Origin: a virus
Lineage: Duplodnaviria; Heunggongvirae; Uroviricota; Caudoviricetes
Reading direction: 5' to 3' (one strand)
IMG/VR virus record: IMGVR_UViG_2877948078_000003
Length of the DNA stretch: 64,000 bases
Below, one piece after another: positions 3,466 through 62,576 of this stretch. Made by a program: the position numbers and the translations under genes. Below the pieces are notes generated by a model. It was given only the letters and a program-made list of their open reading frames with translations, was not told the origin of the DNA and did not search any database. Positions within the stretch are counted from its first letter, which is position 1. Every line of letters begins with the position of its first letter.

Positions 3466-5556
3466 ATGTATGTCATTGCAAAAGAACTGATTGGCGCGCC
3501 CGGAATGCCTGCTACAACAAAAGGTATTCGCCAGGCATTACAACGTTACGTACAAGGGAAAAGCTGTTGTTCCCGTCGTCGCTCAGGCTCTAAAGCAACT
3601 GAATACAGCATCGACTGTTTACCTGAAGTGACGCAGCAGGCATTACGTGAACGTTATGCCCTGCAACTGATGACGCAAAAAGCCGATGAATCACCGGCTC
3701 CGGTGGTGACAAAGGCCAGACGCTCATCTGACGTGGTTGATGCGGTGGAGGCATATCGCGGATCACCACAACTGATGGTCGAACGCCTCAATGCCCTGAC
3801 TGAAAACCAGCGCCAGGTGGCTGATGCACGAATCGCGATCGTCAGCGAAGTGATGAAAGTCGCGCAACAACCCGGTTTCAGCTGCGCGAAGGCTATCCGG
3901 TTTATCGTTGACAACCTGGCACGTTCACAGCTGGACGAGCGCATTGTGGCAATGGTTGAGACGGCGAACGCCAAAAAGGGAAACAGCCGTGCGTTGAGTG
4001 AAATCACGCTGAAGCGATGGATTGCGGCCTTTAACAAGGCACAGAACGCCGCTGAACGCCTGCTTTTACTGGCACCGGGTAAACGCCAGGAAATAAAAGC
4101 CGAAGATATTAACTGGCTGCCCGAATTTCTGGCGCAGTATCGCCAGTCAAACGGCCGACCAATGACCGAGGCTTACGAGGATTTTGTTGCTGAATGGCAG
4201 CACCGGCACGCTGATGAGCCTTATATGCTCGATATCATGCCCTCTTATGACACCATTCGCCGCGCAATGAAGAAACTGCCGGAAGTGGTGAAACAAAAAG
4301 GCCGGGTGACAGGCAGTGAATACCGTCAGCTTGAGGGATTCACGCGCCGCGACTGGTCCAGAATGCCGGTGAATTATGTCTGGATTGGTGACGGTCACGG
4401 CATGAAGATGAAATGCAGGCACCCGGTTCACGGGCGGCCATTTGCACCGGAAGTGACCTTTGTTATCGACGGTGGCACGCGCTTTGTGGTGGGCTGGAGC
4501 CTTGACCTGGCTGAAAATGTTTTCGCCGTAGCCGGTGCCATACAGCACGGTATTCGCCATCACGGCAAACCGTTTCTGTATTACTCGGATAACGGTTCGG
4601 GGGAAACCGCCGACATCCTGGATAAGGAGGTTGTGGGGATCCTGCCGCGCCTGGGGATTAATCACCCGACAGGGATTGCCGGTAATCCGCAGGGGCGAGG
4701 CATTATCGAACGGCTTAACCGCACATTACCGATGCGCATAGCCCGTAAATACCGCACCTATTTCGGGAAAGGTGCAGATCGCGAGACGTTACGCAAAACC
4801 AACCGCGATTTACGCTCGGCATTCACTGCCCTGCAACAGGACAAACGGCTGAACGCCCGGCAGCAGTCAGCGATGCGTGATTTACCGTCCTGGCCTGAAC
4901 TGATTGATGCCATCCGTGATGGTGTCGAGTGGTACAACAACCGGCCGCACAGCGGATTGCCGGTGAAACCGAACGGTAAGCATTACAGCCCGGCGGAATA
5001 CAGGAAAAAACGCCTGGCAGAAGAGGACACGGAAATTGAATGGCTGTCCGATGTTGAGCTGCGGGATATGTTCCGGCCGATGGTGGAACGCCCGGTAAGA
5101 CGCTGTGAAATACGCTGGCTGAATAATATTTACTACGCGCCCGAGCTGCGTGATGAGCATGGCCGTAAGGTGCTTATCAGCTATGACATTCATGATGCCG
5201 AACGAATTACCGTGCGTCGCCTGGATGGCAGCGTGATTTGCGAGGCGGTATGGGACGGCAATAAACGCGAAGCCTTCCCGGTCAGCGCGGAATACTACAA
5301 ACAGCAGCAACGCCTTAAAGGCATGCGTAAACGCGCAGAGGAAAAAATCCGTGATGCCGAGGATGAGGTGGTCAACGTGCTGGAGCACAAGCCGCAAGAG
5401 CCCTGGCTGGAAAACATCTATCGCCCGGTAGGTAATACGGTGGCCGTTCAGCAACCTGCCGTTGATGATGAGCCTGATGAAGAATACGAGCGTAATTTCC
5501 AGCGGGGATTGCAGTTGCTCGAAGCGAAATTAAAAGAAAATGACCCGCTGGCCTGA
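3466..5556 (+). CDS. A: Mu-type DDE transposase A
   Basis: 696 aa (MuA is ~663 aa); internal DDE-like region (VWIGDGHG ... YYSDNGSGE ... IERLNRTL); position after ner. Confidence 0.9.
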   Translation: MYVIAKELIGAPGMPATTKGIRQALQRYVQGKSCCSRRRSGSKATEYSIDCLPEVTQQALRERYALQLMTQKADESPAPVVTKARRSSDVVDAVEAYRGSPQLMVERLNALTENQRQVADARIAIVSEVMKVAQQPGFSCAKAIRFIVDNLARSQLDERIVAMVETANAKKGNSRALSEITLKRWIAAFNKAQNAAERLLLLAPGKRQEIKAEDINWLPEFLAQYRQSNGRPMTEAYEDFVAEWQHRHADEPYMLDIMPSYDTIRRAMKKLPEVVKQKGRVTGSEYRQLEGFTRRDWSRMPVNYVWIGDGHGMKMKCRHPVHGRPFAPEVTFVIDGGTRFVVGWSLDLAENVFAVAGAIQHGIRHHGKPFLYYSDNGSGETADILDKEVVGILPRLGINHPTGIAGNPQGRGIIERLNRTLPMRIARKYRTYFGKGADRETLRKTNRDLRSAFTALQQDKRLNARQQSAMRDLPSWPELIDAIRDGVEWYNNRPHSGLPVKPNGKHYSPAEYRKKRLAEEDTEIEWLSDVELRDMFRPMVERPVRRCEIRWLNNIYYAPELRDEHGRKVLISYDIHDAERITVRRLDGSVICEAVWDGNKREAFPVSAEYYKQQQRLKGMRKRAEEKIRDAEDEVVNVLEHKPQEPWLENIYRPVGNTVAVQQPAVDDEPDEEYERNFQRGLQLLEAKLKENDPLA

Positions 5557-14972: not shown

Positions 14973-15554
14973 ATGGACAAGCCGACGCGTGGTCGTGTAC
15001 GCAAGGTGGATTTGCTCCCCGACAGTATCCGTAAGCCGCTGCTGGAAATGCTGCGTGAAAAACGTCTGACGCAGGTCCAGATCCGCGAGGAAATCAACCG
15101 TCTGATCCGTGAGGCGGGCCTGCCGGAAGAGCAGCAGCTTTCACCGGCGGCCATCAGCCGGGAAGCCTCCCGTAATGAGCTGATTGCCCGTAACCTGCGT
15201 GATTTACGCGAGCAGACAAAAGCCATGATGGCCGAACTGGGGGACAAGCCGACCGGTGAAACCACTGCACTGATTCTGGAGATGTCCCGCGCCCTGATGT
15301 ACCGCCGTCTGCGTGCCGCCACCGAATCCCTGAACAGCGACAGCGACGTGGATATGCGTCTTATTAAGGACATCCTCCTGTCAGCACAGCGTGCGGAAAG
15401 TGCCGCCGAGCGCAGCATTAAGCGTGAAAAAGAAATCCGGGCTGCATTTGCTGAAGAGATGGCAAACGCCGTCACCGACGAGCTGCGCGGCGTGGACGGG
15501 ATGAGTGAACAGCTTGAGTCCCGTATTAAGGGGATTCTGTTGGGTAAAGCCTGA
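14973..15554 (+). CDS. Mu gp27-like protein (putative small terminase / DNA-binding)
   Basis: 193 aa, immediately upstream of the large terminase; N-terminal HTH-like segment. Confidence 0.6.
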   Translation: MDKPTRGRVRKVDLLPDSIRKPLLEMLREKRLTQVQIREEINRLIREAGLPEEQQLSPAAISREASRNELIARNLRDLREQTKAMMAELGDKPTGETTALILEMSRALMYRRLRAATESLNSDSDVDMRLIKDILLSAQRAESAAERSIKREKEIRAAFAEEMANAVTDELRGVDGMSEQLESRIKGILLGKA

Positions 15555-17218
15555 TGAATAACGCCGAAGAACGCTCACCCTTACTGACGAATACCGTCTC
15601 CACCCGCAAAATTGATCTGGCCGGTGAAAAAGCCCTGCTGGGCGTGGATGTGCCGGACAGCCTTGATTTGCCCGGTGATATGCCGGTGTTTCTGGATTAT
15701 CAGGCCCGCTGGTTTGAGGATGAAAGCGAGGTCTGCATCGCGGAAAAATCCCGCCGCACCGGGCTTACCTGGGCGGAAGCCGGGCGTAACGTCATTACCG
15801 CTGCAAAACCGAAGCGGCGTGGTGGCCGCAATGTGTTTTATGTGGGGTCAAAGCAGGAGATGGCGCTGGAATATATTTCTGCCTGTGCATTGTTCTCCCG
15901 TGCCTTTAACCAGCTGGCCGATGCTGATGTGTATGAGCAGACCTTCTGGGATCGGGATAAAAAAGAAGAAATTCTGACCTACATGATCCGCTTTCCGAAC
16001 AGTGGATTCAAAATTCAGGCGCTGTCTTCCCGTCCGTCAAACCTGCGCGGCCTTCAGGGGGATGTGGTGATTGATGAAGCCGCGTTCCACGAGTCGCTGG
16101 ATGAACTTCTCAAGGCGGCAATGGCGCTTACCATGTGGGGCGCGCGCGTGCGTATTATCTCCACGCATAACGGCGTCGATAATCTGTTTAATCAGTACAT
16201 TCAGGAAGCCCGCGAGGGGCGCAAGGATTACAGCGTCCACCGCATTACCCTGGATGATGCCATTACGGACGGGTTGTACCGTCGTATCTGTTATGTCACC
16301 GGCCGCGAATGGTCACCGGAAAGCGAGCAGAAGTGGCGTGATGATCTCTACAAAAACGCCCCGACCCGTGAGGATGCCGACGAGGAATACGGCTGTATCC
16401 CGAAAAAATCCGGCGGTGCCTATATTCCTCACGCACTTATTGAAATGGCGATGATCCGCGACATCCCGATTCTGACGTTTGAAGCCCCGGACGACTTCAT
16501 CAGCCGTGCCGCATGGCTGCGTGAATCGGAAGTTTTAACCTGGTGTGAAGAACATTTAAAACCGCTTTTAGAGGCGTTAAATCCCCGTTCCCGCTTCAGC
16601 TTCGGGGAAGACTTTGCCCGCACCGGTGACCTGTCCTGCTTTGTGCTGCTGGAAATCACTGAATCCCTGGCAAAACGCGAGGTGTTTCGCGTGGAGCTGC
16701 GCAACCTGCCGTATGCCCAGCAGGAGCAGGTGATGATGTACATCCTGACCCGCGTTCCGGCGCTGGTCGGTGCGGCGTTCGACGCCACCGGTAACGGCGA
16801 CTATCTGGCCGAAGCCGCGCTGCTGGCCTTTGGCCCGGACATCATCGACTGCGTGATGTTATCGCCGAAGTGGTACGGCGAGTGGATGCCAAAACTGAAG
16901 GCCGAGTTTGAAGATCAGAATATCCTCGTCGCCCGCCATCAGACCACGCTTGATGATTTGCGCCATGTGAAGATGGTGAACGGTATCCCGCAAATCGACA
17001 AGGGGCGCACGAAGGACCAGAACGCAACGGCTGTGAACGCCCGCCGCCATGGCGATTTTGCCGTGGCGCTCTGTATGGCAAACCGGGCGTCATACATGGA
17101 GGGCTTCATCCTGGATGAATCAGCCTGTCAGGCGCTGCCGGAGCGGTCGCGGGCAATGGAGGGCGGTTATCGTGATGACGATGAGGCATATCATGAATTT
17201 GATCGGGGGTGCTGGTAG
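15554..17218 (+). CDS. Terminase large subunit (Mu gp28-like)
   Basis: 554 aa; position and size match Mu gp28; ATPase/nuclease-type acidic motifs. Confidence 0.85.
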   Translation: MNNAEERSPLLTNTVSTRKIDLAGEKALLGVDVPDSLDLPGDMPVFLDYQARWFEDESEVCIAEKSRRTGLTWAEAGRNVITAAKPKRRGGRNVFYVGSKQEMALEYISACALFSRAFNQLADADVYEQTFWDRDKKEEILTYMIRFPNSGFKIQALSSRPSNLRGLQGDVVIDEAAFHESLDELLKAAMALTMWGARVRIISTHNGVDNLFNQYIQEAREGRKDYSVHRITLDDAITDGLYRRICYVTGREWSPESEQKWRDDLYKNAPTREDADEEYGCIPKKSGGAYIPHALIEMAMIRDIPILTFEAPDDFISRAAWLRESEVLTWCEEHLKPLLEALNPRSRFSFGEDFARTGDLSCFVLLEITESLAKREVFRVELRNLPYAQQEQVMMYILTRVPALVGAAFDATGNGDYLAEAALLAFGPDIIDCVMLSPKWYGEWMPKLKAEFEDQNILVARHQTTLDDLRHVKMVNGIPQIDKGRTKDQNATAVNARRHGDFAVALCMANRASYMEGFILDESACQALPERSRAMEGGYRDDDEAYHEFDRGCW

Positions 17219-18807
17219 TGGGACGCATAATTGATCTTGACGGAAAACCTTTCTCCTTTGACCCGGAGATGCAGAGTGCCGTGCTGGATATTCCGCAGAT
17301 TGCCAGCCGTTATATTGAGCATCCGGCCTCGGGTATCACCCCGAACCGGGCGGCACAGTGCCTTCGCGGGGCTGAACGTGGCGATCTGATTGCCCAGTCC
17401 GATCTGGCCGCTGACATTGAAGAAAAGGATACCCATCTTTTTGCAGAGCTGGGCAAGCGACGTCTTGCCATTCAGGGGGTGCCCTGGAGTATTGAGCCGC
17501 CCCCGAACGCCAGCGCGAATGAGAAAAAGGACGCGGAAATGCTCGACGAATACCTGCATTCCGCCGACTGGTTTGATGCCATGCTGTTTGATGCCACCGA
17601 TGCCATCCTGAAAGGCTATTCCTGCATGGAGATTGAGCACGGGATGCTCGGTAAAATGCACATCATCCGCGCCATCCGCTGGCGTGACAGCGGGCATTTC
17701 TGCCTTAACCCGGATGATTTGAGCGAACTGCGGCTGCGTGACGGCAGCCATGCCGGGGTGGCGTTTCAGCCCTTTGGCTGGATAGTGCATCAGTCACGTT
17801 CACGCACCGGTTACGGCGGCGCAACAGGGCTTGTCAGAACGCTTATCTGGCCGTTCATTTTCAAAAACTATTCCGTGCGCGATCTGGCTGAATTTCTGGA
17901 GGTGTACGGCCTGCCGATGAAGGTCGGTAAATACCCGTCCGGGGCAACACCGGAGCAGAAAAGCGCCCTGATGCGGGCGGTGATGGATATCGGGCGACGT
18001 ACAGGCGGGATCATCCCGGCCGGGATGTCGCTGGAGTTTCAGGCAGCCGCGAACGGTCAGGCCGATCCGTTTGAAACCATGATTTCGTGGGGGGAGCGTT
18101 CCATCTCCAAAGCAATACTCGGCGGCACGCTGACCACGGAAGCCGGAGACAAAGGCGCGCGCTCGCTGGGTGAAGTGCATAACGAGGTGCGCCGGGAAAT
18201 CAGGGATTCTGATTTACGCCAGCTGGCCGCCACGCTGAACCGCGATCTGGTGTATCCGCTGTATGCCCTGAACACCGCCCACGCCATTGATATCCGTCGC
18301 CTGCCGCGTATCTGTTTCCAGACAAAAGAGCCGGGGGATATCACCAAAATCACCAGTGCGGTGATGCAGCTCAGTACGGGGATGGATATTTCTGATCCCT
18401 GGATAAGGGAGCAGACCGGTATTCCGCAGCCCACGCCCGGTGAAGCCATCTTCCGTGTCCGTCAGAGTGGCAATGAACCTGCTCAGACAGACAAAGAGAT
18501 GCCACCGGAAAAACAGGAGAAGACAGAGCAGACAGCGCTGGCTGCCAGACTGCCGGAAGCGAAAAGCAGCCCCCGTGATGAACTGGACGACATGGGGGAT
18601 GCGGTGCCTGCCCGCCGGTTACAGGAGGCCATCGACCCGGTACTGGAGCCGGTCATTGATGCCATCAGAACGCGGGGGCTGGCGGAGGCACTGGCAGACC
18701 TGCCCGCCCTTTACCGTGAAATGGATGATTCCCGCCTGATGACGCTGCTCAGTGATGCCATGTTTGCTGCGGAAATGAAGGGGATGCTGGATGGCACAGG
18801 GGATTGA
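17209..18807 (+). CDS. Portal protein (Mu gp29 / H-like)
   Basis: 532 aa following the terminase; Mu-like portal size and order. Confidence 0.85.
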   Translation: MLVVGRIIDLDGKPFSFDPEMQSAVLDIPQIASRYIEHPASGITPNRAAQCLRGAERGDLIAQSDLAADIEEKDTHLFAELGKRRLAIQGVPWSIEPPPNASANEKKDAEMLDEYLHSADWFDAMLFDATDAILKGYSCMEIEHGMLGKMHIIRAIRWRDSGHFCLNPDDLSELRLRDGSHAGVAFQPFGWIVHQSRSRTGYGGATGLVRTLIWPFIFKNYSVRDLAEFLEVYGLPMKVGKYPSGATPEQKSALMRAVMDIGRRTGGIIPAGMSLEFQAAANGQADPFETMISWGERSISKAILGGTLTTEAGDKGARSLGEVHNEVRREIRDSDLRQLAATLNRDLVYPLYALNTAHAIDIRRLPRICFQTKEPGDITKITSAVMQLSTGMDISDPWIREQTGIPQPTPGEAIFRVRQSGNEPAQTDKEMPPEKQEKTEQTALAARLPEAKSSPRDELDDMGDAVPARRLQEAIDPVLEPVIDAIRTRGLAEALADLPALYREMDDSRLMTLLSDAMFAAEMKGMLDGTGD

Positions 18808-20122
18808 TTTAGGTTATGCCGCCACCCTTCCCTCAAAAGAGGCGGTGGCATACTTCCGCGCCAAAGGGGAGCATATCAGCTGGAACTGGTTCGAAACAGA
18901 CGCGGATGTTCATGCCCGTTCATTCACGGCGGCAAGAGTGGCACGCCTGGACGTACTGACCACACTACAGGCGGAAGTGCAGCGTGCTGTTGATGAGGGG
19001 ATTTCACAGAAAGCATTTATCAGCACGCTGACACCCCGCCTGCAAAAGCTGGGATGGTGGGGAAAACAGATTGTGGTGGACAGCGCCGGTAACGCAGAAG
19101 AAGTGCAGCTGGGCAGTCCCCGCCGTCTGGCGCTGATTTACAACGTGAACACCCGTGTGGCTTACAATGCCGGGCGTTACACGCAGATGATGAACAACAC
19201 GGACACGCATCCGTTCTGGCAGTATGTGGCGGTGATGGACAGCCGCACCCGCCCGGCGCATTCCGCTCTTAACGGTCTGGTATTCCGCTATGACGATCCG
19301 TTCTGGAATACACACTACCCACCCAATGGCTGGAACTGTCGCTGCCGTGTCCGGCCATTGTCTCAGGCCCGTCTGGATGCAATGGGGTTATCCGTTTCAT
19401 CCGGTCAGGATCATCTCTCCACCCGCAATGTTGAGGCTGGCGTGGATAAGCAGACCGGGGAAGTCAGAGAAATGCCGGTGACCACATATTCAGATGGCAC
19501 CAGAACCATGACACCGGATGTGGGCTGGTCATATAACCCCGGTTCGGCGGCGTTCGGCACAGACCAGGCGCTGATCCGTAAACTGATCGAGGTGAAAAGC
19601 CCGGCGCTGCGGGAAATGGTGGTTCAGGAGATGAACAACAGCCCGGAGCGGCAACTGGCGTTCCGCATCTGGGCAAAAAACATCATGAAAACCCGGCGAG
19701 GCGGTAACGATATCCGCACGCTGGGCTTTATGACCGAAAGCATTGCGCAGGCGGTGGAAAGCCGGACGGGAACGCCACCAGCCCGCCTGCTGGCGATGAG
19801 CGGTAAAAATGTGCTCCATGCGGACAGCATGAAACATCAGAATGACGGTATCGCCCTGACGCCGGAGGATTTCGGGCGCTTACCGGCAATGCTGGCAAGG
19901 CCAAAAGCGGTACTGTGGGACAAACGGCACAACAATCTGATGTATATCGTGGAAAATCAGGATGGCAGTGTGCAGATTGCCGTTAATGCACCGTACAGCC
20001 TGAAGCGTCAGCCGGATAAACTGGATGTGATTGTTAATGCTTACCGGGTTATCAATATGGATAAGCTGAAATCGGATGTCCGGGGCGGAATGCTTGAGGT
20101 ACTGGAAGGAGATATTGATTAA
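18791..20122 (+). CDS. Mu F-like head morphogenesis protein (gp30)
   Basis: 443 aa; follows portal; typical Mu F family features (NGWNCRCR motif). Confidence 0.8.
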   Translation: MAQGIDLGYAATLPSKEAVAYFRAKGEHISWNWFETDADVHARSFTAARVARLDVLTTLQAEVQRAVDEGISQKAFISTLTPRLQKLGWWGKQIVVDSAGNAEEVQLGSPRRLALIYNVNTRVAYNAGRYTQMMNNTDTHPFWQYVAVMDSRTRPAHSALNGLVFRYDDPFWNTHYPPNGWNCRCRVRPLSQARLDAMGLSVSSGQDHLSTRNVEAGVDKQTGEVREMPVTTYSDGTRTMTPDVGWSYNPGSAAFGTDQALIRKLIEVKSPALREMVVQEMNNSPERQLAFRIWAKNIMKTRRGGNDIRTLGFMTESIAQAVESRTGTPPARLLAMSGKNVLHADSMKHQNDGIALTPEDFGRLPAMLARPKAVLWDKRHNNLMYIVENQDGSVQIAVNAPYSLKRQPDKLDVIVNAYRVINMDKLKSDVRGGMLEVLEGDID

Positions 20123-20207
20123 CGGTCAGTGGCGGGGGTCGAACCCGCATACATGATCCACCCGGAGGCAGGCACCGACTTTACCAGTTAAGCGTACACT
20201 GACCGCC
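20123..20207. other. Structured inverted-repeat element between F and G (tRNA T-arm-like hairpin inside a 9-bp stem; possible terminator)
   Basis: CGGTCAGTG ... CACTGACCG encloses GCGGGGGTCGAACCCGC and is followed by a T-rich run; does not fold into a full tRNA cloverleaf. Confidence 0.3.
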
Positions 20208-20243
20208 TGTTTATTTTATATTCATCCTTTATGCGGAGGCAAT

Positions 20244-20717
20244 ATGTCATCCATTGATGCCGCTGTCGTTGTTGACGTTACGCGTCTCCAGCGGGTCTTT
20301 GCCCGGCTTCAGTTTGTGGGTGGTGGAAAAGACCTGACCCGCAGTGTGGCGTCCAGCCTTCTGTCATCGTCAGAAATGGCGTTTGAACAGGAAAAAGAGC
20401 CGGACGGCGAACGCTGGCATGACTGGTCAGATCCTTACCGCAAGTGGCGTACCCGTAAGGGATACATGCCCGGCAAAATCCTGACGCTGAACGGCGATCT
20501 GGCCCGACGCCTGACCACGGATTATGGCGATACCTGGGCGCTGATTGGATCAAATGAGCCTTATGCGGCCATTCATCAGTGGGGGGGCCTGCCAGGTATG
20601 CCGCCTGGACCGGCGGCCATTGGTGCACGTCCGTATATGGGCTTTGATCAGGTGGCAGAGCAGGAGATCATGGACGAAATCAGAAAACGCTTTAAAAAGG
20701 CCACAGAAACGCCTTAA
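20244..20717 (+). CDS. Mu G-like virion morphogenesis protein (gp31)
   Basis: 157 aa; position between F and I; size matches Mu G. Confidence 0.7.
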   Translation: MSSIDAAVVVDVTRLQRVFARLQFVGGGKDLTRSVASSLLSSSEMAFEQEKEPDGERWHDWSDPYRKWRTRKGYMPGKILTLNGDLARRLTTDYGDTWALIGSNEPYAAIHQWGGLPGMPPGPAAIGARPYMGFDQVAEQEIMDEIRKRFKKATETP

Positions 20718-20892
20718 TTGTTTAAGGTATGCAAATGCATTACCTTACCCCCTTCAGGCGCGTGTCGTGATTTTCTAACCTGTATTTAACGGGCTTTAAA
20801 ATCTGCGTGAAGCGCCTTTGCATTTTTTCCTGAAAGCACTTCCTGAAATCCCGCAAAACCCGCCCTGAAAATTCCCGGCCTATGCTGCCGGA

Positions 20893-22017
20893 ATGAAGAC
20901 GAAAAACACGCCCAAACTTGCTTATGCCATTCTGAATGCCATCAGCCTGTCCGCAGACGGGGACGGTGACTGGTGTCAGATCATGCCAGCCGGTCGGGTA
21001 AAGGCCCGTGACGGTCGCCCGGAAAAACCGGCCGAGGGCTGGCTGATCAACCATGCAGCCGTTGAGCGCATGGTCTCCCGTGTTGTGGCGCTCAATCAGC
21101 CGGTGAAAATTGACTACAACCACCAGACCCTGATTGAGGGACATCCGGCACCGGCTGCCGGTTTTGTGATGGCCTCACCGGAGAATTTTCGCTTCAGTGA
21201 AGAGCGAGGTTTCGAGGTGCGCCCGAAGTGGAACCCTCCGGCCCTTGAACATCTGCGTAATAACGAATTCCCCTGGTTTTCACCGGTGATTGGCTATGAC
21301 GAGAGCACCGGCGAACCTGTCGAACTTCGGATGCTGGCTATTACCGGTGACCCCGGTCTGACCGGCATGAATCCTGTCGCCGCACTGTCGGCGGATGACC
21401 TTTATAACGCCTTAAACCCTCCTTTAAAGGATACCTCCATGAATGAGCAATTACGCCAGTTGCTGACGGCGCTCGGTCTGACCGTGGCTGACGGTGACGA
21501 ATTTACGCCGGAGCTGGGCACGGCAGCGCTGTCTGCCCTCACCGGGATCAAAACCCGTGCGGATGCACACGACAACCTGAAAACACAGGTCGCCAGTCTG
21601 TCGGCAGAGCTGGAAACTGCAAAAGGCACACCGGCTGGCGGCAGTATTGACCTGACGAAATACGTGCCCGTTGAAACGTATAACGCCCTGCGTACCGAAT
21701 ACGTTGCGCTGTCGGCGCAGCACGGCAGCACCACGCTGGAGCAGTTGCTGGACAAGGCCGAGTCCGAAGGACGCATCTTCAAAAGTGAACGCGGCTATCT
21801 GGAACAACTGGGCGGGCAGATTGGCGTGGCGGCACTTTCTGCACAGCTTGACGCCCGCCAGCCGGTTGCGGCCCTGACCGGCCTTCAGACCGACACCGTG
21901 ACCGTGCCGGATAAAAAGACTGCCACCGCTGTGCTGTCGGCTGAAGATATCGCGGCCGCCAAACTGCTGGGTAAAACCGAAGCCGAGTTCCTGAAAATGA
22001 AAGAGGAAATGCAATAA
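20893..22017 (+). CDS. Mu I-like head protease / scaffold (gp32)
   Basis: 374 aa immediately upstream of the major head protein; C-terminal coiled-coil scaffold-like region. Confidence 0.75.
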   Translation: MKTKNTPKLAYAILNAISLSADGDGDWCQIMPAGRVKARDGRPEKPAEGWLINHAAVERMVSRVVALNQPVKIDYNHQTLIEGHPAPAAGFVMASPENFRFSEERGFEVRPKWNPPALEHLRNNEFPWFSPVIGYDESTGEPVELRMLAITGDPGLTGMNPVAALSADDLYNALNPPLKDTSMNEQLRQLLTALGLTVADGDEFTPELGTAALSALTGIKTRADAHDNLKTQVASLSAELETAKGTPAGGSIDLTKYVPVETYNALRTEYVALSAQHGSTTLEQLLDKAESEGRIFKSERGYLEQLGGQIGVAALSAQLDARQPVAALTGLQTDTVTVPDKKTATAVLSAEDIAAAKLLGKTEAEFLKMKEEMQ

Positions 22018-22964
22018 TGCCTACCCCGATTACACCGGCGATGATCACCGCCCTGATGACGGGCTACCGTTCTGATTTTCAGGCCGGGATGTCCATGGCC
22101 CCGTCGCAGTACAAAAAAATTGCGATGACCGTGCCCTCCACATCGAAATCCAACACCTACGGCTGGCTGGGGCAGTTCCCGCAGTTCCGTGAGTGGATCG
22201 GCTCCCGCGTCATCGAGAAGATGAAGGCCTATGGCTATGCCATCGTGAACAAAACCTTTGAAGGCACCGTCGCCATTAACCGCGATGACTTCGAAGACGA
22301 TAACCTCGGTATTTATTCCCCGTTGTTCCAGGAGATGGGGCGCGCTGCGGCGGTACAACCGGATGAGCTGGTCTTTGCTGCCCTGCGTGACGGGATCAGT
22401 GCGGCCTGCTATGACGGTCAGAACTTCTTTGATACCGAACATCCGGTTTACCCCAAAGTGGATGGCTCCGGGGATGCGCAGATGGTCAGCAATATGTTTG
22501 TGGCAAAAACCGGCTCTGTCGGCGCACAGGCTGATTACAGCGGTCCGGCCTGGTATCTGCTTGACTGCTCCCGCGCGGTAAAACCGCTGATTTATCAGGA
22601 TCGCCGTAAGGCTGAACTGGTTGCCCAGACCAAAGTCGATGAAGGTCGCGCATTCACCGATAACGAATTTGTGTTTGGTGCATCCGCCCGTCGCAATGTG
22701 GGCTACGGCTTCTGGCAGATGGCCTACATGATGCAGTCACCGCTGACGCTGGATGCACTGTGGCACGGCTGGTCAGCCATGCGCGAATTTACCGCTGACG
22801 GTGGCCGCAAACTCGGCATTAAACCCACCCATATTGTTGTCCCCACCTCGCTGGAAAAACAGGCGGTGCAGCTGCTGGAGCGTGAACTGTTCGCAGACGG
22901 AAACGCAACCGTCTCTAACGAGATGAAGGGCAAGCTGGAGCTGGTTGTCGCGGATTATCTGTAA
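22017..22964 (+). CDS. Major head subunit (Mu T / gp34-like)
   Basis: 315 aa; position and size as for Mu T. Confidence 0.85.
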   Translation: MPTPITPAMITALMTGYRSDFQAGMSMAPSQYKKIAMTVPSTSKSNTYGWLGQFPQFREWIGSRVIEKMKAYGYAIVNKTFEGTVAINRDDFEDDNLGIYSPLFQEMGRAAAVQPDELVFAALRDGISAACYDGQNFFDTEHPVYPKVDGSGDAQMVSNMFVAKTGSVGAQADYSGPAWYLLDCSRAVKPLIYQDRRKAELVAQTKVDEGRAFTDNEFVFGASARRNVGYGFWQMAYMMQSPLTLDALWHGWSAMREFTADGGRKLGIKPTHIVVPTSLEKQAVQLLERELFADGNATVSNEMKGKLELVVADYL

Positions 22965-29099: not shown

Positions 29100-30444
29100 C
29101 ACGCCGGGGCGTGGCTCCTTTCGTGGTGTACCGTTTCTGGTTTATCAGGAACAACGGGAACGGGGCGGACGTAACATTGTACGCCGTGAATATCCTCTGC
29201 GGGAAAGCGGCGGCGCGGATGATTTGGGGCCAAAACTCCCGGAGTTTACATTCACGGCTCTTGTGATCGGCGATGATCTTCAGACGCAGCGAAGCCGCCT
29301 GCGGGATGCGCTGCGGGCACCCGGTGCCGGTGAACTGATGCACCCGGATTACGGCACCTTAAACGTGCTGATAAACAGCTTTGAAAGCCGTTATAACGCC
29401 AGCGAACAGGGAACGGTTGAGTTCACAATCAACGTGATCCCCGCCTGTGATGATACCGCACCGGCGGTGGCTGAAGACACGGCTGCCGTTCTGGAGCAGA
29501 AAAGCGGTTCAGCAATGAATCAGTTGTTTAACACGCTTTCAGACGGCTGGACAGTGATTTCAGACGGCCTGCATGATGTGCAGGCCATGACCGACACCAT
29601 CAGCGATAAAATTGATGCGCTGGAGAATGCCGTTTCGGGAATGGGGATTGTGCAGGATATCAGTGCCTTTACGGCCAGTTTCACTGCCCTGAAAGGGAAT
29701 GCTGCCGCCCTGATTAATTCGCCCCGTCGCATGGCTGAATCTCTGGCCGGAATGTTTGCGGTGCTGACGGGACTGCCCGGCGATCCTTCCCTGTCACTGA
29801 CCGGGAAGGCCGCAACGCCGTCCGGCAGCCTGACCACAAACCGTGACAGCATGACAGAGCAGGCAATGCCGCAACTGTACCGCACACTTTCTTCCCTGCG
29901 TTATACCCTCAGCGGGCAGGATGATCCGCAGATCCTGATTGGTCTGACGCCTGCGGCACAGAAAAATATCTGTCTTCTGCGGACAGTCATGCAGAGCGCA
30001 ACCCTGGTGTCACAGGCGCAGACGGTAGGAAAACTGCTGGATCAGGTCGTCCGGCAGAGTGCGACGCACGTTCAGGATACTGACCGGGAGGGCGGACTGG
30101 CCTGGCTGGAAAGTTCTGCCGATGTGCAGCGGCTCAACCGGGATTTGAGTGATGCCCTGGAACAACAGGTGCTGGATTTGTCCGCACAGGGCCATACCGG
30201 AACCGCCCTTGCATTACGTGATGCCAGGCTTGCGCTGACAGAGGATTTAACAACGCGTAGCGTGCATCTTCCCGGCGCTTCTCAGGTCATGGTGCGAACC
30301 ACCGAACCGGCACTGGTCACGCTGTACCGTGCCACCGGCAACAGCCGTCGCTGGCAGTATTTTGTCCGCAGGAACAACATCCCTGATCCGGTTTTTGTTC
30401 CTGGTGGTCGCAGTGTGGAGGTGATCAGTGAGCAGCATGATTGA
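29086..30444 (+). CDS. Mu N-like DNA circularisation / tail protein (gp43)
   Basis: 452 aa; order after tape measure. Confidence 0.7.
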   Translation: MASTDTPGRGSFRGVPFLVYQEQRERGGRNIVRREYPLRESGGADDLGPKLPEFTFTALVIGDDLQTQRSRLRDALRAPGAGELMHPDYGTLNVLINSFESRYNASEQGTVEFTINVIPACDDTAPAVAEDTAAVLEQKSGSAMNQLFNTLSDGWTVISDGLHDVQAMTDTISDKIDALENAVSGMGIVQDISAFTASFTALKGNAAALINSPRRMAESLAGMFAVLTGLPGDPSLSLTGKAATPSGSLTTNRDSMTEQAMPQLYRTLSSLRYTLSGQDDPQILIGLTPAAQKNICLLRTVMQSATLVSQAQTVGKLLDQVVRQSATHVQDTDREGGLAWLESSADVQRLNRDLSDALEQQVLDLSAQGHTGTALALRDARLALTEDLTTRSVHLPGASQVMVRTTEPALVTLYRATGNSRRWQYFVRRNNIPDPVFVPGGRSVEVISEQHD

Positions 30445-34222: not shown

Positions 34223-35082
34223 TGTTTCATGTTGATAATAATTCCGGCGTGGCGAATATGCCTGCGCTGGCACCGGCGCAGAGTAATACCACCGCCTGGT
34301 TTACCGAAGGTGACGGACAAAAAGGTATCAGCTGGATTGGTCAGGACTGGCTGAATATTCTCCAGGCCGAACTGCTGAATATTCTGGCTGAAGCCAGTAT
34401 TCAGCCGGATAAGGCGCAGTTAAACCAGCTTACGCTGTCTATTAAAGCCATTATCGCTGCGAATGCTTTTTCCCGGAAAAATAACCTGAAAGAAATTGCT
34501 GATGCCGGTGCGGATGCTCAGCGTCTGGCCCGTGGTTATCTTGGTCTGGGGACGCTTGCCACAAAAAACAGTCTTGGTCCCGGTGACGTTAATGCCCTGG
34601 CGAAGGTTCAGAATCTCGCCGACCTGGAGAATAAGGGAACCGCCCGTAATAATCTGGATGTTTACAGCAAGAGCGAAGGTGATAACCGTTACCTGCGCAG
34701 GGAGCAGCACGGCGCAGACATTCCGAATAAAGGGGCTTTTATCGATAACCTCGGTTTACGGGATACGGTAAACAGGGCTGCGAATGCCCTGCCATCAAAC
34801 GGTACGGCTGTTGCAGCAAGCAGGCTGGCAAATACCCGCAGAATCAATGGTGTCGCCTTTGACGGGACGCAGGATATAAACATCACATCCGGCATAACTC
34901 AGAGGGATGCTGATGCCCGATATGTTCAGAACGTAATGCTGGGTGCAAGTGCGCGGACAGAGACAACAGCACCAGCTGGATGTGTTGTAACATTTGTGGA
35001 TGGTGGCAGTAAAATGGAGTTTATAATGTATAAGCCTGTTCAAATATATATCGGGGGAGCATGGAGAACAATCTCTGGCTGA
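34222..35082 (+). CDS. S: Tail fibre protein S (constant part plus variable tip in the current orientation)
   Basis: 287 aa from ATG 34222; the gix crossover site lies inside the gene at 34739-34764; C-terminal [17 protein letters not shown] tip. Confidence 0.7.
34739..34764. promoter_or_regulatory. gix-L recombination site (Gin/Hin-type 12-2-12 crossover site)
   Basis: TTATCGATAACC-TC-GGTTTACGGGAT resembles the Mu gix / Hin hix consensus; inverted copy at 36094-36119. Confidence 0.65.
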
Positions 35083-57766: not shown

Positions 57767-58156
57767 ATGGACATGAGAAAAAAGCAATACGACACCCCGC
57801 TGGCAGAAAGGTTAGATACGATCTCGCAACAGCATCATTTAAGCGGTTCAGATTTAGCGCGCATCGCTGGTGTAGGACGCTCATCAGTCAACGCCTGGAA
57901 AAAAAGAGGGACAATCAGTAAAGATTCCGCAGCCAAAATTGCAGAAGCGACAAATGTTTCCCTTTCCTGGCTACTGACAGGAAAAGAAGATACAAACAGA
58001 GAGGCGCTTGATGATGATGAGAAAGCCCTGCTTGATGTTTACAGAAACCTGCCACCTGTAGAGCGTAGAAATATGCTGGCAGCTTTTCAAATGCGCCTTC
58101 AAAAACTGACCGAATTTTACTCAGAATACGTTGACCCAATAACGCGACAAAAATAA
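57767..58156 (+). CDS. CI-like repressor of DicA/RacR type (HTH_XRE, no LexA-like protease domain)
   Basis: 129 aa; HTH LSGSDLARIAGVGRSSVNAWKKRG; divergent from the cro-like gene. Confidence 0.75.
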   Translation: MDMRKKQYDTPLAERLDTISQQHHLSGSDLARIAGVGRSSVNAWKKRGTISKDSAAKIAEATNVSLSWLLTGKEDTNREALDDDEKALLDVYRNLPPVERRNMLAAFQMRLQKLTEFYSEYVDPITRQK

Positions 58157-58175: not shown

Positions 58176-58202
58176 ATACCGCCGGAAGGCGGTTTTTTTT
58201 TG
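58176..58202 (+). terminator. Rho-independent terminator after the repressor gene
   Basis: Hairpin CGCCGGAAGGCGG followed by T9. Confidence 0.6.
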
Positions 58203-58204
58203 CC

Positions 58205-58250
58205 TCTTGCGCATTCACAATGTTGACATATGTTCATTTGAAGAGAACAA
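58205..58250 (+). promoter_or_regulatory. Putative pL-like promoter with operator palindrome
   Basis: TTGACA at 58221-58226 overlapping palindrome TGTTCATTTGAAGAGAACA (58229-58247). Confidence 0.45.
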
Positions 58251-58325
58251 TATATCCCATCAAAGCACAACGGTGCGACAGGTCTTAGTTCCGCCCCCCC
58301 GGCGTTAAGGGCAAATGAGGTCAAC

Positions 58326-58478
58326 ATGGATACGCTCAATCTTGGCAACAACGAATCTCTGGTATGCGGCGTGTTTCCCAACCAGGACGGCACGTTTACC
58401 GCGATGACGTATACCAGAAGCAAAACGTTTAAAACTGAAGCTGGCGCGCGTCGCTGGTTAGCAAGAAACTCTGACTAA
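58326..58478 (+). CDS. Small early-left protein (50 aa; ydfA/ydaF-like position)
   Basis: Hand-translated ORF MDTLNLGNNESLVCGVFPNQDGTFTAMTYTRSKTFKTEAGARRWLARNSD with RBS GAGG 6 nt upstream. Confidence 0.5.
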   Translation: MDTLNLGNNESLVCGVFPNQDGTFTAMTYTRSKTFKTEAGARRWLARNSD

Positions 58479-58591
58479 TGAAGTCTGGTAGTTAAGGAAT
58501 CCTCCACGGGGAGAACTGGTGCACACGCGCCGGACACAAGCAAGCATCCGGCATGCTCTTTAACAATCTGGATATCCATAACAGTAACAAT

Positions 58592-59149
58592 CTACAGATT
58601 GCCGTTCAGTTTTCTGGCCAACTCCTCAATAGATGGAGGCGATACATAATCCGGATTTTTATTCATAAGAAACTGATTTTCACAGTAGAGGCACCTGCTT
58701 TTATGAAAAAACTCATGTTCTCTAACCGGGAATGGTTGAAGTATCGATACTATCTTTTGTCCAAAACATTTTGGACAAAGATGCATGATTATGCTGCCGC
58801 CGTTCACGGTTACCTCCTTCGAGTACACAAAAGTTCCCGACTCAAGTTGGTTAAGGATATAACCTTCCGTCTGAGCCTCAAAGTTTTCAAATTCTGCAAT
58901 TTTAGCTTTGAGAGAAGCATTTATTTCTTGATAAGTGCTCACCAGCTCAACGAGAGACACGCATTCGTGCTGAATAGATGCAAGCTTTGAGTTCAGTTCA
59001 CCAATAGCCGCATTTACTTCAGCTTGAGTTTTTGCCTCGTTCATTAGTTTTGCAATCTGAGCGGTTTCACGAATAGCCGTCATTGCTGCCGTTAATTCAG
59101 CGATCACATTCAATACTCTTATTGTTGTTGGGGATATCCAGATTAACAA
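58592..59149 (-). CDS. Coiled-coil protein with C-terminal CxxC-x24-CxxC zinc-ribbon, oriented against the pL operon
   Basis: 185-aa ORF (TTG start; alternative ATG at 59083 gives 163 aa); ~100 aa heptad-like helix then CPKCFGQK ... CLYCENQ. Confidence 0.5.
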   Translation of the reverse strand: MLIWISPTTIRVLNVIAELTAAMTAIRETAQIAKLMNEAKTQAEVNAAIGELNSKLASIQHECVSLVELVSTYQEINASLKAKIAEFENFEAQTEGYILNQLESGTFVYSKEVTVNGGSIIMHLCPKCFGQKIVSILQPFPVREHEFFHKSRCLYCENQFLMNKNPDYVSPPSIEELARKLNGNL

Positions 59150-59635
59150 GATCCTTGTTGTTGGGGAATAACAGGTCCACCTCGCCTGACGTGGTTAAAA
59201 GCAGGCACACAACACGAAAGCGCTCGGCGAAGTTAGTCTCTCTGTATATGTCGTCGTTAAATGTAATTCGATCGTGCGCTTCCGGTTGTGGCAATCCGCG
59301 AAATGGCGCGGCGGTAAGTATGGCTGGGGCTTCCTCCATTGCTCCAGAAAATGCACCGGGTTGTCAGGTTGACCATACGCCTGAGTGACAACACCGCCAC
59401 AACAACCTCTGTTATCACTTTTCTGGTGATTCGGCGGAAATGGATATCCGCCATTTTTAAAGTGTATTTTGTGATGCGGTGAATGCGGCTAAGCGCACGC
59501 GGAACAGTTAAAACAAGCGGTCTTTTACTGGCGTAACAGACATCAACTAACAATCCGGCGTTAATTGTTAACTGGTTAACGTCACCTGGAGGCACCAGGC
59601 ACCACATCACAAAATTCATTGTTGAGGACGCGATA

Positions 59636-59824
59636 ATGGAAACGTCACTACCAAACGTTAATACATCTGAAGGGTGTTTTAATATTGGTATTCTGCTCAG
59701 TAACCGGGAGTTTACTGAGGACGCCATCAGGATGAGAAAATATGAGCCTTATCTTCTCAATGATAATTCCATACTCTCCAGAATTGCCCTTCTTGAACTT
59801 GGCATTTTCGGAGGGCAGCAGTGA
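59636..59824 (+). CDS. Hypothetical small protein (62 aa)
   Basis: RBS GAGGA 7 nt upstream of ATG; stop overlaps the next start. Confidence 0.4.
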   Translation: METSLPNVNTSEGCFNIGILLSNREFTEDAIRMRKYEPYLLNDNSILSRIALLELGIFGGQQ

Positions 59825-60104: not shown

Positions 60105-62576
60105 ATGAGTAAAATATTTATTTGCGCCGCCATTCCTGACGAACAGGCAATAAAAAACGAGGGCGCTGTTGCTGTGGCCACAGCCATTGAAGCCGGTGAT
60201 GAACGTCGCGCCCGCGCAAAATTTCACTGGCAATTCCTTGAACATTATCCGGCTGCTCAGGACTGCGCTTATAAATTTCTTGTCTGTGAGGATAAACCCG
60301 GTACACCCCGCCCAGCCCTCGACTCCTGGGATGCTGAATATATGCTGGAAAACCGCTGGGATGAGGCGTCTGCTTCCTTTGTCCCGGTTGAGACTGAATC
60401 AGATCCGATGAACGTCACTTTTGACAAGCTGTCCCCTGAAGTACAGAACGCTGTCATGGTTAAGTTCGACACATGTGAAAACATCACCGTTGATATGGTG
60501 ATTAGCGCACAGGAATTGTTGCAGGAAGACATGGCAACCTTCGACGGACATATCGTTGAAGCGTTGATGAAAATGCCAGAAGTTAACGCCATGTATCCGG
60601 AGATTAAACTGCATGCCATCGGGTGGGTTAAGCATAAATGTAAGCCTGGTGCCAAATGGCCAGAAATTCAGGCAGAGATGCGCATCTGGAAAAAACGTCG
60701 CGAAGGTGAACGCAAGAAAACCGGAAAATATACGTCTGTTGTTGATCTCGCACGCACCAGAGTTAACCAGCACCTCACCGAAAACTCAGCAGCAAAAATC
60801 AACCCTGTCACTACAGCCATTCGTCGCGAATACAGGCAGACATGGAAAACACTGGATAAAGAACTGGCCTGCGCCCTCTGGCCCGGGGATGTGGATGCAG
60901 GAAACATTGACGGTACCATCCATCGCTGGGCTAAAAATGAGGTTATCGACAAGGATCGCGAAGACTGGAAGCGTATCTCAGCATCAATGCGCAAACAGCC
61001 TGATGCGCTTCGCTATGACCGTCAGACTATTTTCGGCCTTGTTCGTGAGCGCCCGATCGACATTCACAAAGATCCCGTTGCACTGAACAAATACATCAGC
61101 GAATACCTGACGACAAAGGGCGTGTTTGAACATGAAGAAACAGACCAGAGCTCTGCTGATGCTATCCTGTCGTCAGCAGCACAAACTGATCCAGTGGAGA
61201 CGGCGGAATCCAATTCTCAAAAAAATGAAATCCTGGTGGAAGCTGAACCATCTGTAGAGCGTGAAGGACCGTTTTATTTCGTCTTTACCGATAAGGACGG
61301 GGAAAAATACGGCAGGGCAAACAAACTTTCTGGCCTGGACAAGGCGCTGGCTGCCGGTGGTACCGAAATCTCAAAAGAAGAATATTTTGCCCGAAAAAAT
61401 GGCACATATACGGGCTTACAGCAAAATACAGATACCGCAGAAGATTCAGAACAACCAGAGCCGGTAAAAGTTACCGCAGACGAAGTAAACAAAATTATGC
61501 AGGCAGCCAATATCAGCCAGCCTGACACCGATAAATTGCTTGCTGCATCACGTGGTGAATTTGTTGAAGGGATGAGCGACCCGAATAATCCGAAATGGGT
61601 TAAGGGGATTGAAACCCGCGATTCTGAGAACCAGAACCAGCCCGAATCGGAACAAAACGACCAGAAAGCGGAACATAACAGCCCAAATGCGTTACAAAAC
61701 GAGCCAGAAACGAAACAGCCTGAACCAGAAGAGCAACAAGAACCGGAAAAAGTCTGCACCGCCTGCGGTCAGATCGGCGGCGGCAACAGTCCTGACTGTG
61801 GCGCGGTGATGGGCGACGCAACATACCAGGAAACATTCGATGAAAAAAATCGGGCTGAAGTTCAGGAAGATGATCCGGAGGAAATGGAAGGCCCTGAACA
61901 TCCGAACAATGAGAATGCTGGTAACGATCAGCATCACACCAGCGATAGTGAAACTGGAGAGGCGGCAGATCCCTTAATTGCGGTGAACGGTCATCACGTT
62001 ATCACATCCACCAGCAGAGTGTGGATTCACCTGTCGGTCGACCTTGAAACGATGGGAACAAATCCTGATGCGCCAATCAACTCTATTGGCGGTAAATTTT
62101 TTGATCCGGCAACCGGAGAGATGGGGCCTGAATTCAGTAAAGCTATCGATCTGGAAACCTCCGGCGGAATCATCGACCGTAAAACAATAAAGTGGTGGGC
62201 GAAACGATCACGCGAAGCACAATCCGCTATTTTTACCGATGAAATCTCGTTAGATGTTGCTCTCCGGCTATTCATAGAATTTATCGAAAAAAACTCCGGC
62301 GGGCGTTTTGTCCAGGTATGGGGAAATGGAGCCAACTTCGACAACGTAATTTTACGCCGTTCATATGAACGGCAGGGGATCCCCTGCCCGTGGCTTTACT
62401 ACAACGATCGCGATGTACGCACAATCGTTGAACTGGGTAATGCCATTGGCTTTGATGTCAGAATGGCTATTCCATTCGAAGGCGTACCCCACAATGCGCT
62501 GGACGATGCCCGTCACCAGGCAAAACAAGTTTCAGCAATCTGGCAAAAACTGATCCCGAGTCAGGCTGATTTTTAA
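60105..62576 (+). CDS. Large prophage exonuclease with C-terminal DnaQ-like (DEDDh) 3'-5' exonuclease domain
   Basis: 823 aa; C-terminal motifs SVDLETMG (Exo I), NGANFDNVIL (Exo II), HNALDDARHQA (Exo III); acidic low-complexity linker; pL-operon position of exo/recE. Confidence 0.75.
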   Translation: MSKIFICAAIPDEQAIKNEGAVAVATAIEAGDERRARAKFHWQFLEHYPAAQDCAYKFLVCEDKPGTPRPALDSWDAEYMLENRWDEASASFVPVETESDPMNVTFDKLSPEVQNAVMVKFDTCENITVDMVISAQELLQEDMATFDGHIVEALMKMPEVNAMYPEIKLHAIGWVKHKCKPGAKWPEIQAEMRIWKKRREGERKKTGKYTSVVDLARTRVNQHLTENSAAKINPVTTAIRREYRQTWKTLDKELACALWPGDVDAGNIDGTIHRWAKNEVIDKDREDWKRISASMRKQPDALRYDRQTIFGLVRERPIDIHKDPVALNKYISEYLTTKGVFEHEETDQSSADAILSSAAQTDPVETAESNSQKNEILVEAEPSVEREGPFYFVFTDKDGEKYGRANKLSGLDKALAAGGTEISKEEYFARKNGTYTGLQQNTDTAEDSEQPEPVKVTADEVNKIMQAANISQPDTDKLLAASRGEFVEGMSDPNNPKWVKGIETRDSENQNQPESEQNDQKAEHNSPNALQNEPETKQPEPEEQQEPEKVCTACGQIGGGNSPDCGAVMGDATYQETFDEKNRAEVQEDDPEEMEGPEHPNNENAGNDQHHTSDSETGEAADPLIAVNGHHVITSTSRVWIHLSVDLETMGTNPDAPINSIGGKFFDPATGEMGPEFSKAIDLETSGGIIDRKTIKWWAKRSREAQSAIFTDEISLDVALRLFIEFIEKNSGGRFVQVWGNGANFDNVILRRSYERQGIPCPWLYYNDRDVRTIVELGNAIGFDVRMAIPFEGVPHNALDDARHQAKQVSAIWQKLIPSQADF

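Follow-up and report, generated by a model that had tools for sequence, protein, structure and literature searches.

Rip1 (ring interacting pore 1) is a prophage-encoded defence consisting of a single protein, which is non-toxic on its own and protects lysogens against superinfecting phages, according to the review PMC13434031, which covers Patel et al. 2026. The same review describes escaper phages with mutations in the portal (Pseudomonas phages) or the small terminase (E. coli phages), and a solved complex in which 12 copies of Rip1 surround an 11-mer small-terminase ring, the N-terminal part of Rip1 forming amphipathic helices and the C-terminal half touching the ring. Dye leaks from liposomes treated with the complex, which also perforates cells, and the infected cell dies before the phage matures (PMC13434031). 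A conference report (PMC12908700) and an independent paper (PMC13601566) agree that Rip1 senses the small terminase. Here we describe a relative of this protein in a 64,000-nucleotide (nt) stretch of Caudoviricetes DNA, IMG/VR record IMGVR_UViG_2877948078_000003 (the whole stretch is referred to as the window). It is encoded by a minus-strand open reading frame (ORF), with its stop codon at 58592-58594, which lies between genes of the early-left operon and antisense to that operon. The window protein is a so far unannotated member of the Rip1 family; sequence, fold and context all give this assignment good support.

The window protein matches PHROG 1244 (“unknown function”) with an E-value of 1e-57, as do HK446 Rip1 (gp37; 2e-53), HK620 HkaP (8e-51) and JBD30 gp30 (3e-61), each of the four covering the whole of the PHROG. 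A phmmer search against PDB sequences returned a single specific match, 9oox, “ring interacting pore 1 (Rip1)”, at E 2e-7; with a profile of 22 homologues the value was 4e-17, covering positions 6-153 of 167 in the profile and residues 16-160 of 164 in the chain. In this entry the Rip1 of Escherichia phage HK446 is in complex with the small terminase of T6. By tblastn, identity is ~30% to HkaP (E 6e-14) and 29% over 153 amino acids (aa) to the JBD30, DMS3 and MP38 proteins (E 3e-12). The family is large, with 2325 cluster representatives at E <= 1e-3, nearly all of them 145-175 aa long.

The predicted fold agrees with this assignment. The AlphaFold2 (AF2) model has a predicted local distance difference test score (pLDDT) of 87 and consists of helices at residues 2-24 and 28-79 and a beta-rich C-terminal domain at 84-150, so that the long N-terminal helices and the beta-rich domain with two CxxC knuckles of the Rip1 family are both present. 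When the model was searched with Foldseek, the best matches were 9oox_M and 9oox_L (E 8e-7, prob 1.0, target-normalised template modelling score 0.72), whereas no significant match was found among the BFVD viral models. The four cysteines of the motif CPKC-x24-CLYC (C111, C114, C139 and C142 in the 171-aa numbering) are invariant in the 22 homologues, and these four, together with Y83, V94, Y95, L123 and Q124, are also invariant across the window protein, HkaP, HK446 Rip1 and JBD30 gp30. By the crude measure of hydrophobic moment, the N-terminal helix scores 0.44 (residues 7-24), against 0.42 at the same position of HK446 Rip1. An earlier note on this DNA, made from the letters alone, had correctly described both the motif and a helical N-terminal region; its statement that there was no matching family is now out of date, and the Foldseek search on a predicted structure that it had proposed gave no specific match other than 9oox.

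The coding sequence (CDS) occupies 58592-59107 on the minus strand, starts with GTG at 59107 and encodes 171 aa. These limits are identical to the call of the Prokaryotic Genome Annotation Pipeline (PGAP), and the RefSeq record of the protein, WP_000559918.1, is labelled “hypothetical”. The assignment of a Rip1-family CDS draws on the ORF, the PGAP annotation, PHROG 1244, PDB 9oox, the AF2 model, Foldseek and a codon-position test. The earlier note had given the ORF as 58592-59149, antisense to the early-left operon and between the repressor and the exonuclease. The ORF list and the annotation bear out this placement and the gene is real, but the start at 59149 does not stand, as the TTG there is merely the mechanical upstream limit of the ORF, and homologues from ~10 genera start MIAEL(S/T)AAM at the conserved GTG (rarely ATG), some of them with an in-frame stop just upstream.

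Comparison with homologous sequences shows that the coding frame is the minus frame. Differences from two homologues concentrate at minus-frame codon position 3 (16 of 26 and 56 of 112). The window also has an overlapping plus-strand ORF of 145 aa at 58553-58990, which the note had named as a frame that might prove to be the conserved one, and from which it could be argued that the minus-strand ORF is only its shadow, or the shadow of no gene. It is a mirror frame: the codons that differ from the same two homologues are mostly non-synonymous in it (18 of 23 and 37 of 54), it is interrupted by 4-7 stops in distant homologues, and its ATG falls on the border of the conserved cassette. Since both the codon-position and the synonymous/non-synonymous patterns favour the minus frame, and its product has relatives in 2325 clusters and a solved homologue, the probability that this is not a gene is negligible and the comparative data already refute it. 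The neighbouring minus-strand ORFs at 59097-59339 and 59257-59727 have neither a family match nor a PGAP annotation and were treated as non-genes.

The 105 nt upstream of the GTG are more strongly conserved across genera than the protein itself, and are common to HK446 rip1 and hkaP although the proteins are only 25-30% identical. A search with this leader matched the region just 5' of sieB in lambda (34396-34481) and P22 (29652-29736), and the P22 record annotates a sieB promoter at 29690-29720 and an RNA start at 29727, inside the leader match. Alignment to these P22 and lambda regions places a putative sieB-type promoter at 59134-59170 on the minus strand, with a -35 of TATTCC (59165-59170), a 17-nt spacer, a -10 of GTTAAT (59142-59147) and a transcription start at ~59135 (59134-59136), just before the second CCCCAACAACAA repeat. 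The predicted 5' untranslated region (UTR) of ~27 nt would consist of this second repeat and AAGAG. A simple promoter scan of the window did not call the site, as consensus thresholds were not reached, so the promoter call is one made by homology. Because the leader is homologous to a mapped sieB promoter, expression from the lysogen is likely, and the suggestion in the note that such a gene may have its own promoter gains from the same homology. AAGAG itself (59116-59120, minus strand), 8 nt upstream of the GTG, is a weak Shine-Dalgarno sequence, of which (A/T)GAG is kept in homologues. Such a combination of weak promoter, GTG start and weak ribosome-binding site would suit a protein that needs to be scarce.

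Two further elements lie within this leader. A repeat search identified a 13-nt direct repeat, which reads TCCCCAACAACAA on the gene strand and has two copies at a distance of 33 nt (59122-59167, minus strand); one overlaps the -35 region and spacer and the other makes up the 5' UTR, and they are kept in homologues, with CCCCTACAG repeats in the sieB and HK446 versions. Further upstream is a 31-nt element, TGCCTGCTTTTAACCACGTCAGGCGAGGTGG (59177-59207, minus strand), which is conserved across ~10 genera, contains two overlapping inverted repeats (GCCTG/CAGGC and CCAC/GTGG) and is centred, by our count, at about -61.5 relative to the P22 start site. In the form TGCCTGyCTTTTAACCACrTCAGGC...GGTGG it is common to lambda and P22 sieB, HK446 rip1, hkaP and the window gene. 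The element was also observed before unrelated small genes in the same slot of BL21-type and other dicB-type prophages (in our loci L009 and L010 near 3070 on the minus strand, and in L111 and L112 near 1200-1235). In BL21/Rosetta only ~38 nt separate it from the ATG that starts a 66-aa gene, which is hard to square with a purely promoter-upstream role. The fold of the leader RNA is unexceptional, its minimum free energy being no better than that of shuffled sequences (z = -0.38). Only the Enterobacter copy (L006) alters both sides of the CCAC/GTGG pairing, and the variation is too small for a covariation test.

Conservation of the protein is uneven along its length. In the 22-sequence alignment, column identity is 0.71-0.77 over residues 1-126 and falls to 0.41 at residues 127-138 and 0.32 at 151-171. 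Among homologues the identities of residues 1-110 and 111-171 are uncoupled, for example 75% against 27% in one and 65% against 80% in another, which suggests recombination between a conserved pore and oligomerisation module and a variable module for ring recognition, which in Rip1 is the portion touching the terminase ring. The exchangeable C-terminal part, residues 111-171, is likely to be the specificity module.

Taken together, we regard it as probable, with good confidence, that 58555-59214 of the window is a self-contained defence cassette (“moron”) encoding a Rip1-family protein with a Rip1-like mechanism. The mechanism is proposed because of the homology with the Rip1 of Escherichia phage HK446 and of a Pseudomonas aeruginosa prophage. 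By this analogy, the lysogen would produce the 171-aa protein at a low level from the weak sieB-type promoter, the GTG and the weak ribosome-binding site, and the protein would be harmless alone. When a superinfecting phage reached late expression, its ring-shaped small-terminase or portal oligomer would be bound by the C-terminal four-cysteine domain and would act as the template for the assembly of ~12 copies, whose N-terminal amphipathic helices would then open a pore in the inner membrane. The cell would die or lyse before progeny were complete, which would amount to abortive infection. The proposal in the earlier note of a stand-alone exclusion or anti-phage factor is supported, in that the protein is a full-length homologue of a characterised single-protein defence and may be presumed to act like it.

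Several points weigh against this reading. The resident prophage has Mu-type small-terminase (14973-15554) and portal (17209-18807) genes of its own, so self-tolerance must be assumed. The window protein shares only 25-30% identity with the characterised Rip1 proteins, and the literature, as far as we could find, holds no experiment on the subfamily to which the window protein belongs. The AF2 model is of a monomer, and the 12-mer assembly and the pore are beyond its reach; the defining residues, tested homologues and toxicity data of Rip1 are known to us second-hand. The putative promoter has a poor -35, and in the window the cassette is without its canonical terminator.

The resident small-terminase and portal genes, which are of the same general kind as those of JBD30, also bear on an alternative in which a Rip1-family protein would serve the prophage's own cycle, by timing lysis or checking packaging through its own terminase or portal rings. 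Some homologues do lie at the lysis-terminase junction, namely the Arsenophonus copy (L007) and JBD30 gp30. We consider such a role improbable, given that Rip1 protects lysogens against superinfecting phages and that the escape mutations are in the portal or small terminase of the incoming phage, as PMC13434031 reports, and given that the window gene, preceded by a putative sieB-type lysogenic promoter, belongs to the early region close to immunity and not to the late operon.

Two other readings depart from the Rip1-like mechanism. In one, true superinfection exclusion would be at work, either as a block of DNA entry or early development, in keeping with how HkaP is annotated, or as a SieB-like action, and there would be no pore that senses late proteins. 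The window gene has the sieB promoter in common with sieB, in lambdoid phages the sieB slot is common too, and HK620 hkaP is marked in its record as a “putative superinfection exclusion protein”. SieB homology of the window protein was nevertheless rejected, as the hhalign probability with lambda SieB is 0.1% and SieB belongs to PHROG 6399 rather than 1244; moreover, no transmembrane segment is evident (the maximum 19-residue Kyte-Doolittle mean is 1.13) and it is to a late protein, the small terminase, that the solved homologue is bound. We therefore find exclusion in this sense hard to credit. In the other, the protein would be a nucleic-acid-binding regulator of the CT398/HP0958 kind, with a coiled coil and a zinc ribbon, controlling prophage or host genes. 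The next Foldseek match after the 9oox chains had an E-value of 0.06, scans of the ORF against Pfam, NCBIfam and PADLOC (2023) gave nothing or sub-threshold coiled-coil noise, and a regulator of this kind has in our view very little likelihood.

At its right end the window contains the early region of a lambdoid prophage adjoining an ompW remnant, which matches E. coli 2013C-3181 and SI-NP020 with 100% identity. One flank of the antisense gene consists of the DicA/CI-type repressor gene (57767-58156, plus strand) and ydfA/DUF1391 (58326-58478, plus strand), the latter lying between the repressor and the antisense gene; on the other flank are dicB (59636-59824, plus strand), a DUF1482 gene, the 3'-5' exonuclease gene (60105-62576, plus strand) and then the excisionase and integrase genes, also on the plus strand. 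The cro, YdaT and O- and P-like genes are on the minus strand, and the antisense gene is the sole minus-strand gene within the plus-strand early-left operon. A bidirectional terminator-like hairpin (58178-58193) directly follows the repressor gene. Upstream of ydfA is a near-consensus promoter-like site, TTGACA-17-AACAAT (58223-58251, plus strand), which is a plausible early-left (dicB operon) promoter. At 59420-59457 on the plus strand, TTTCTGGTGATTCGGCGGAAATGGATATCCGCCATTTTT begins like the DicF small RNA; it ends in a terminator-like hairpin (59433-59452) and lies upstream of dicB, as DicF does in Qin. The Rfam scan gave no DicF at E <= 0.1, its only match being a sub-threshold one to STnc100 at 59451-59689 (31.5 bits against a gathering score of 47). 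Besides this DicA/dicB-type early region, the prophage has head and packaging genes of Mu type at 14973-22964 on the plus strand (gp27-like small terminase, Mu portal, MuF, protease I and major head gpT); the Pseudomonas JBD phages in which a Rip1 homologue occurs share this packaging type.

The gene is present in 648 of 5426 complete E. coli genomes (~12%), including O157:H7 and other Shiga-toxin-producing strains, where it goes by the name “hypothetical protein”. In all contexts examined except that of Trabulsiella, homologues occur as a single gene, antisense to the prophage neighbours and with no conserved partner. The position varies: the gene adjoins the repressor in the window, in phage PhiR49_1 and in an Enterobacter prophage, the Salmonella copy is between cro and the pR/replication genes, and that of Arsenophonus is between the lysis and terminase genes. 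In Trabulsiella odontotermitis (L015) a 78-aa ORF at 3698-3934 on the plus strand, directly upstream of the full-length gene and with its own copy of the sieB-type leader, resembles only the N-terminal helical half of a Rip1-like protein. It may be a remnant left by recombination, or else a truncated paralogue that modulates in the manner of Esc.

Downstream of the gene, the 3' flank GGATATCCAGATTGTTAAAGAGC (58555-58577, minus strand), delimited by a comparison of 23 loci and by the boundary of the match to PhiR49_1, is kept in most of the homologue loci compared. At most other loci an intrinsic terminator follows it; the window has lost this terminator and homology ends at 58555. On the plus strand, 58554-58566 is an exact rrn-type boxA, TGCTCTTTAACAA (rrn boxA sequence from PMC2724277, Table 1), which occurs once in the window. 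It is on the strand of the early-left operon, ~300 nt downstream of the promoter-like site at 58223-58251 and at the entry into the antisense gene. The portion GCTCTTTA is at 58555-58562, and the core GCTCTTTAA is kept in most homologue loci examined. In four of the five contexts examined in detail (the window, PhiR49_1, Salmonella and Enterobacter) the boxA faces the incoming early-operon transcript, and in the fifth, that of Arsenophonus, the copy is without a boxA.

It is conceivable, and we put this forward tentatively as something that may well prove wrong, that the cassette is built to sit harmlessly antisense in an essential operon. The boxA would recruit NusB/NusE-type antitermination factors; polymerase could then traverse the antisense stretch of ~660 untranslated nt, and dicB, exo, xis and int would be spared Rho-dependent polarity. 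At prophage induction this read-through would also act as antisense transcription that silences the Rip1-like gene. Such silencing would explain self-tolerance. Seen together with a sieB-type promoter that is portable and a C-terminal module that can be exchanged, such an arrangement would be a general plug-in design for defence genes in lambdoid early operons, and a functional boxA would explain how antisense morons escape both polarity and self-killing.

A repeat search also found a 26-nt inverted repeat (left arm 58565-58590, right arm 59119-59144), the arms of which bracket the CDS and are 81% complementary, with a perfect 13-nt core, AATCTGGATATCC, that is kept in other genera. The right arm overlaps the putative transcription start and 5' UTR. 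An invertible switch was considered, and a chimeric junction query found no inverted arrangement in the 5426 E. coli genomes, so that this was rejected as far as the assemblies show. A convergent promoter in the 3' flank was dropped because there is no -35 and the upstream part is not conserved.

Compared with the solved Rip1 of HK446 (gp37; PDB 9oox; Patel et al., Nature 651:1060, 2026), the window protein is only ~25-28% identical, is without the N-terminal extension of 10 residues and carries an additional tail, NPDYVSPPSIEELARKLNGNL, at the C-terminus. In pL, both HK446 rip1 and hkaP occupy an antisense position with N on one side and the ral/cIII genes on the other, which is where sieB lies in lambda and P22, and the slot of the rexAB or sieB kind that the earlier note envisaged is thus one that named relatives of the gene do occupy. 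The window gene is unlike HK446 rip1 in being in a DicA/dicB-type prophage, beside ydfA and with no N gene nearby, and the region downstream of HK446 rip1 shows neither the boxA-bearing 3' flank nor the inverted repeat of the window cassette. Among named phage relatives, the closest by tblastn is HkaP of HK620, HK629 and HK630, which has PHROG 1244, the sieB-type promoter and the antisense position in pL in common with the window gene but belongs to another sequence subfamily. To our knowledge HkaP is uncharacterised and is known by its annotation only.

Among Mu-like P. aeruginosa phages, JBD30 gp30 and its counterparts in DMS3, MP38 and D3112 (orf25) belong to PHROG 1244 and are antisense single genes like the window gene. 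JBD30 gp30 differs in lying in the late region, antisense between a small-terminase-like gene and TerL, whereas the window gene is in the immunity region, and it is without a sieB-type leader upstream. PMC13434031 places the Pseudomonas Rip1 between the small and large terminase genes. JBD30 gp30 and its orthologues are probably that original Pseudomonas Rip1. If the window protein is recognised as a Rip1-type defence, the phages that it would abort can be predicted as those with small-terminase or portal rings fitting its sensor, which is relevant to phage therapy and biocontrol of the strains that carry the gene, and a divergent subfamily with natural C-terminal swaps offers material for mapping ring recognition by Rip1.

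The locus does not resemble a RexAB-type pair, in which a sensor gene and an ion-channel gene are co-transcribed with the repressor: it consists of one gene, runs on the other strand from the repressor and has no PADLOC match. With SieB of lambda and P22 it has in common a homologous promoter and leader and the antisense placement in an early operon, although the proteins are unrelated. P22 sieB is under the control of Esc and the sas RNA (PMC12197685). The sas promoter is inside the sieB coding sequence and has no counterpart in the window, so control of the sas/Esc type is not to be assumed here. SieB is expressed from the prophage and follows an abortive-infection logic, to which that of the window gene may be likened. 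The sieB slot and its promoter would then be a common expression platform for unrelated abortive-infection genes, among them sieB, rip1, hkaP, the window gene and other small genes.
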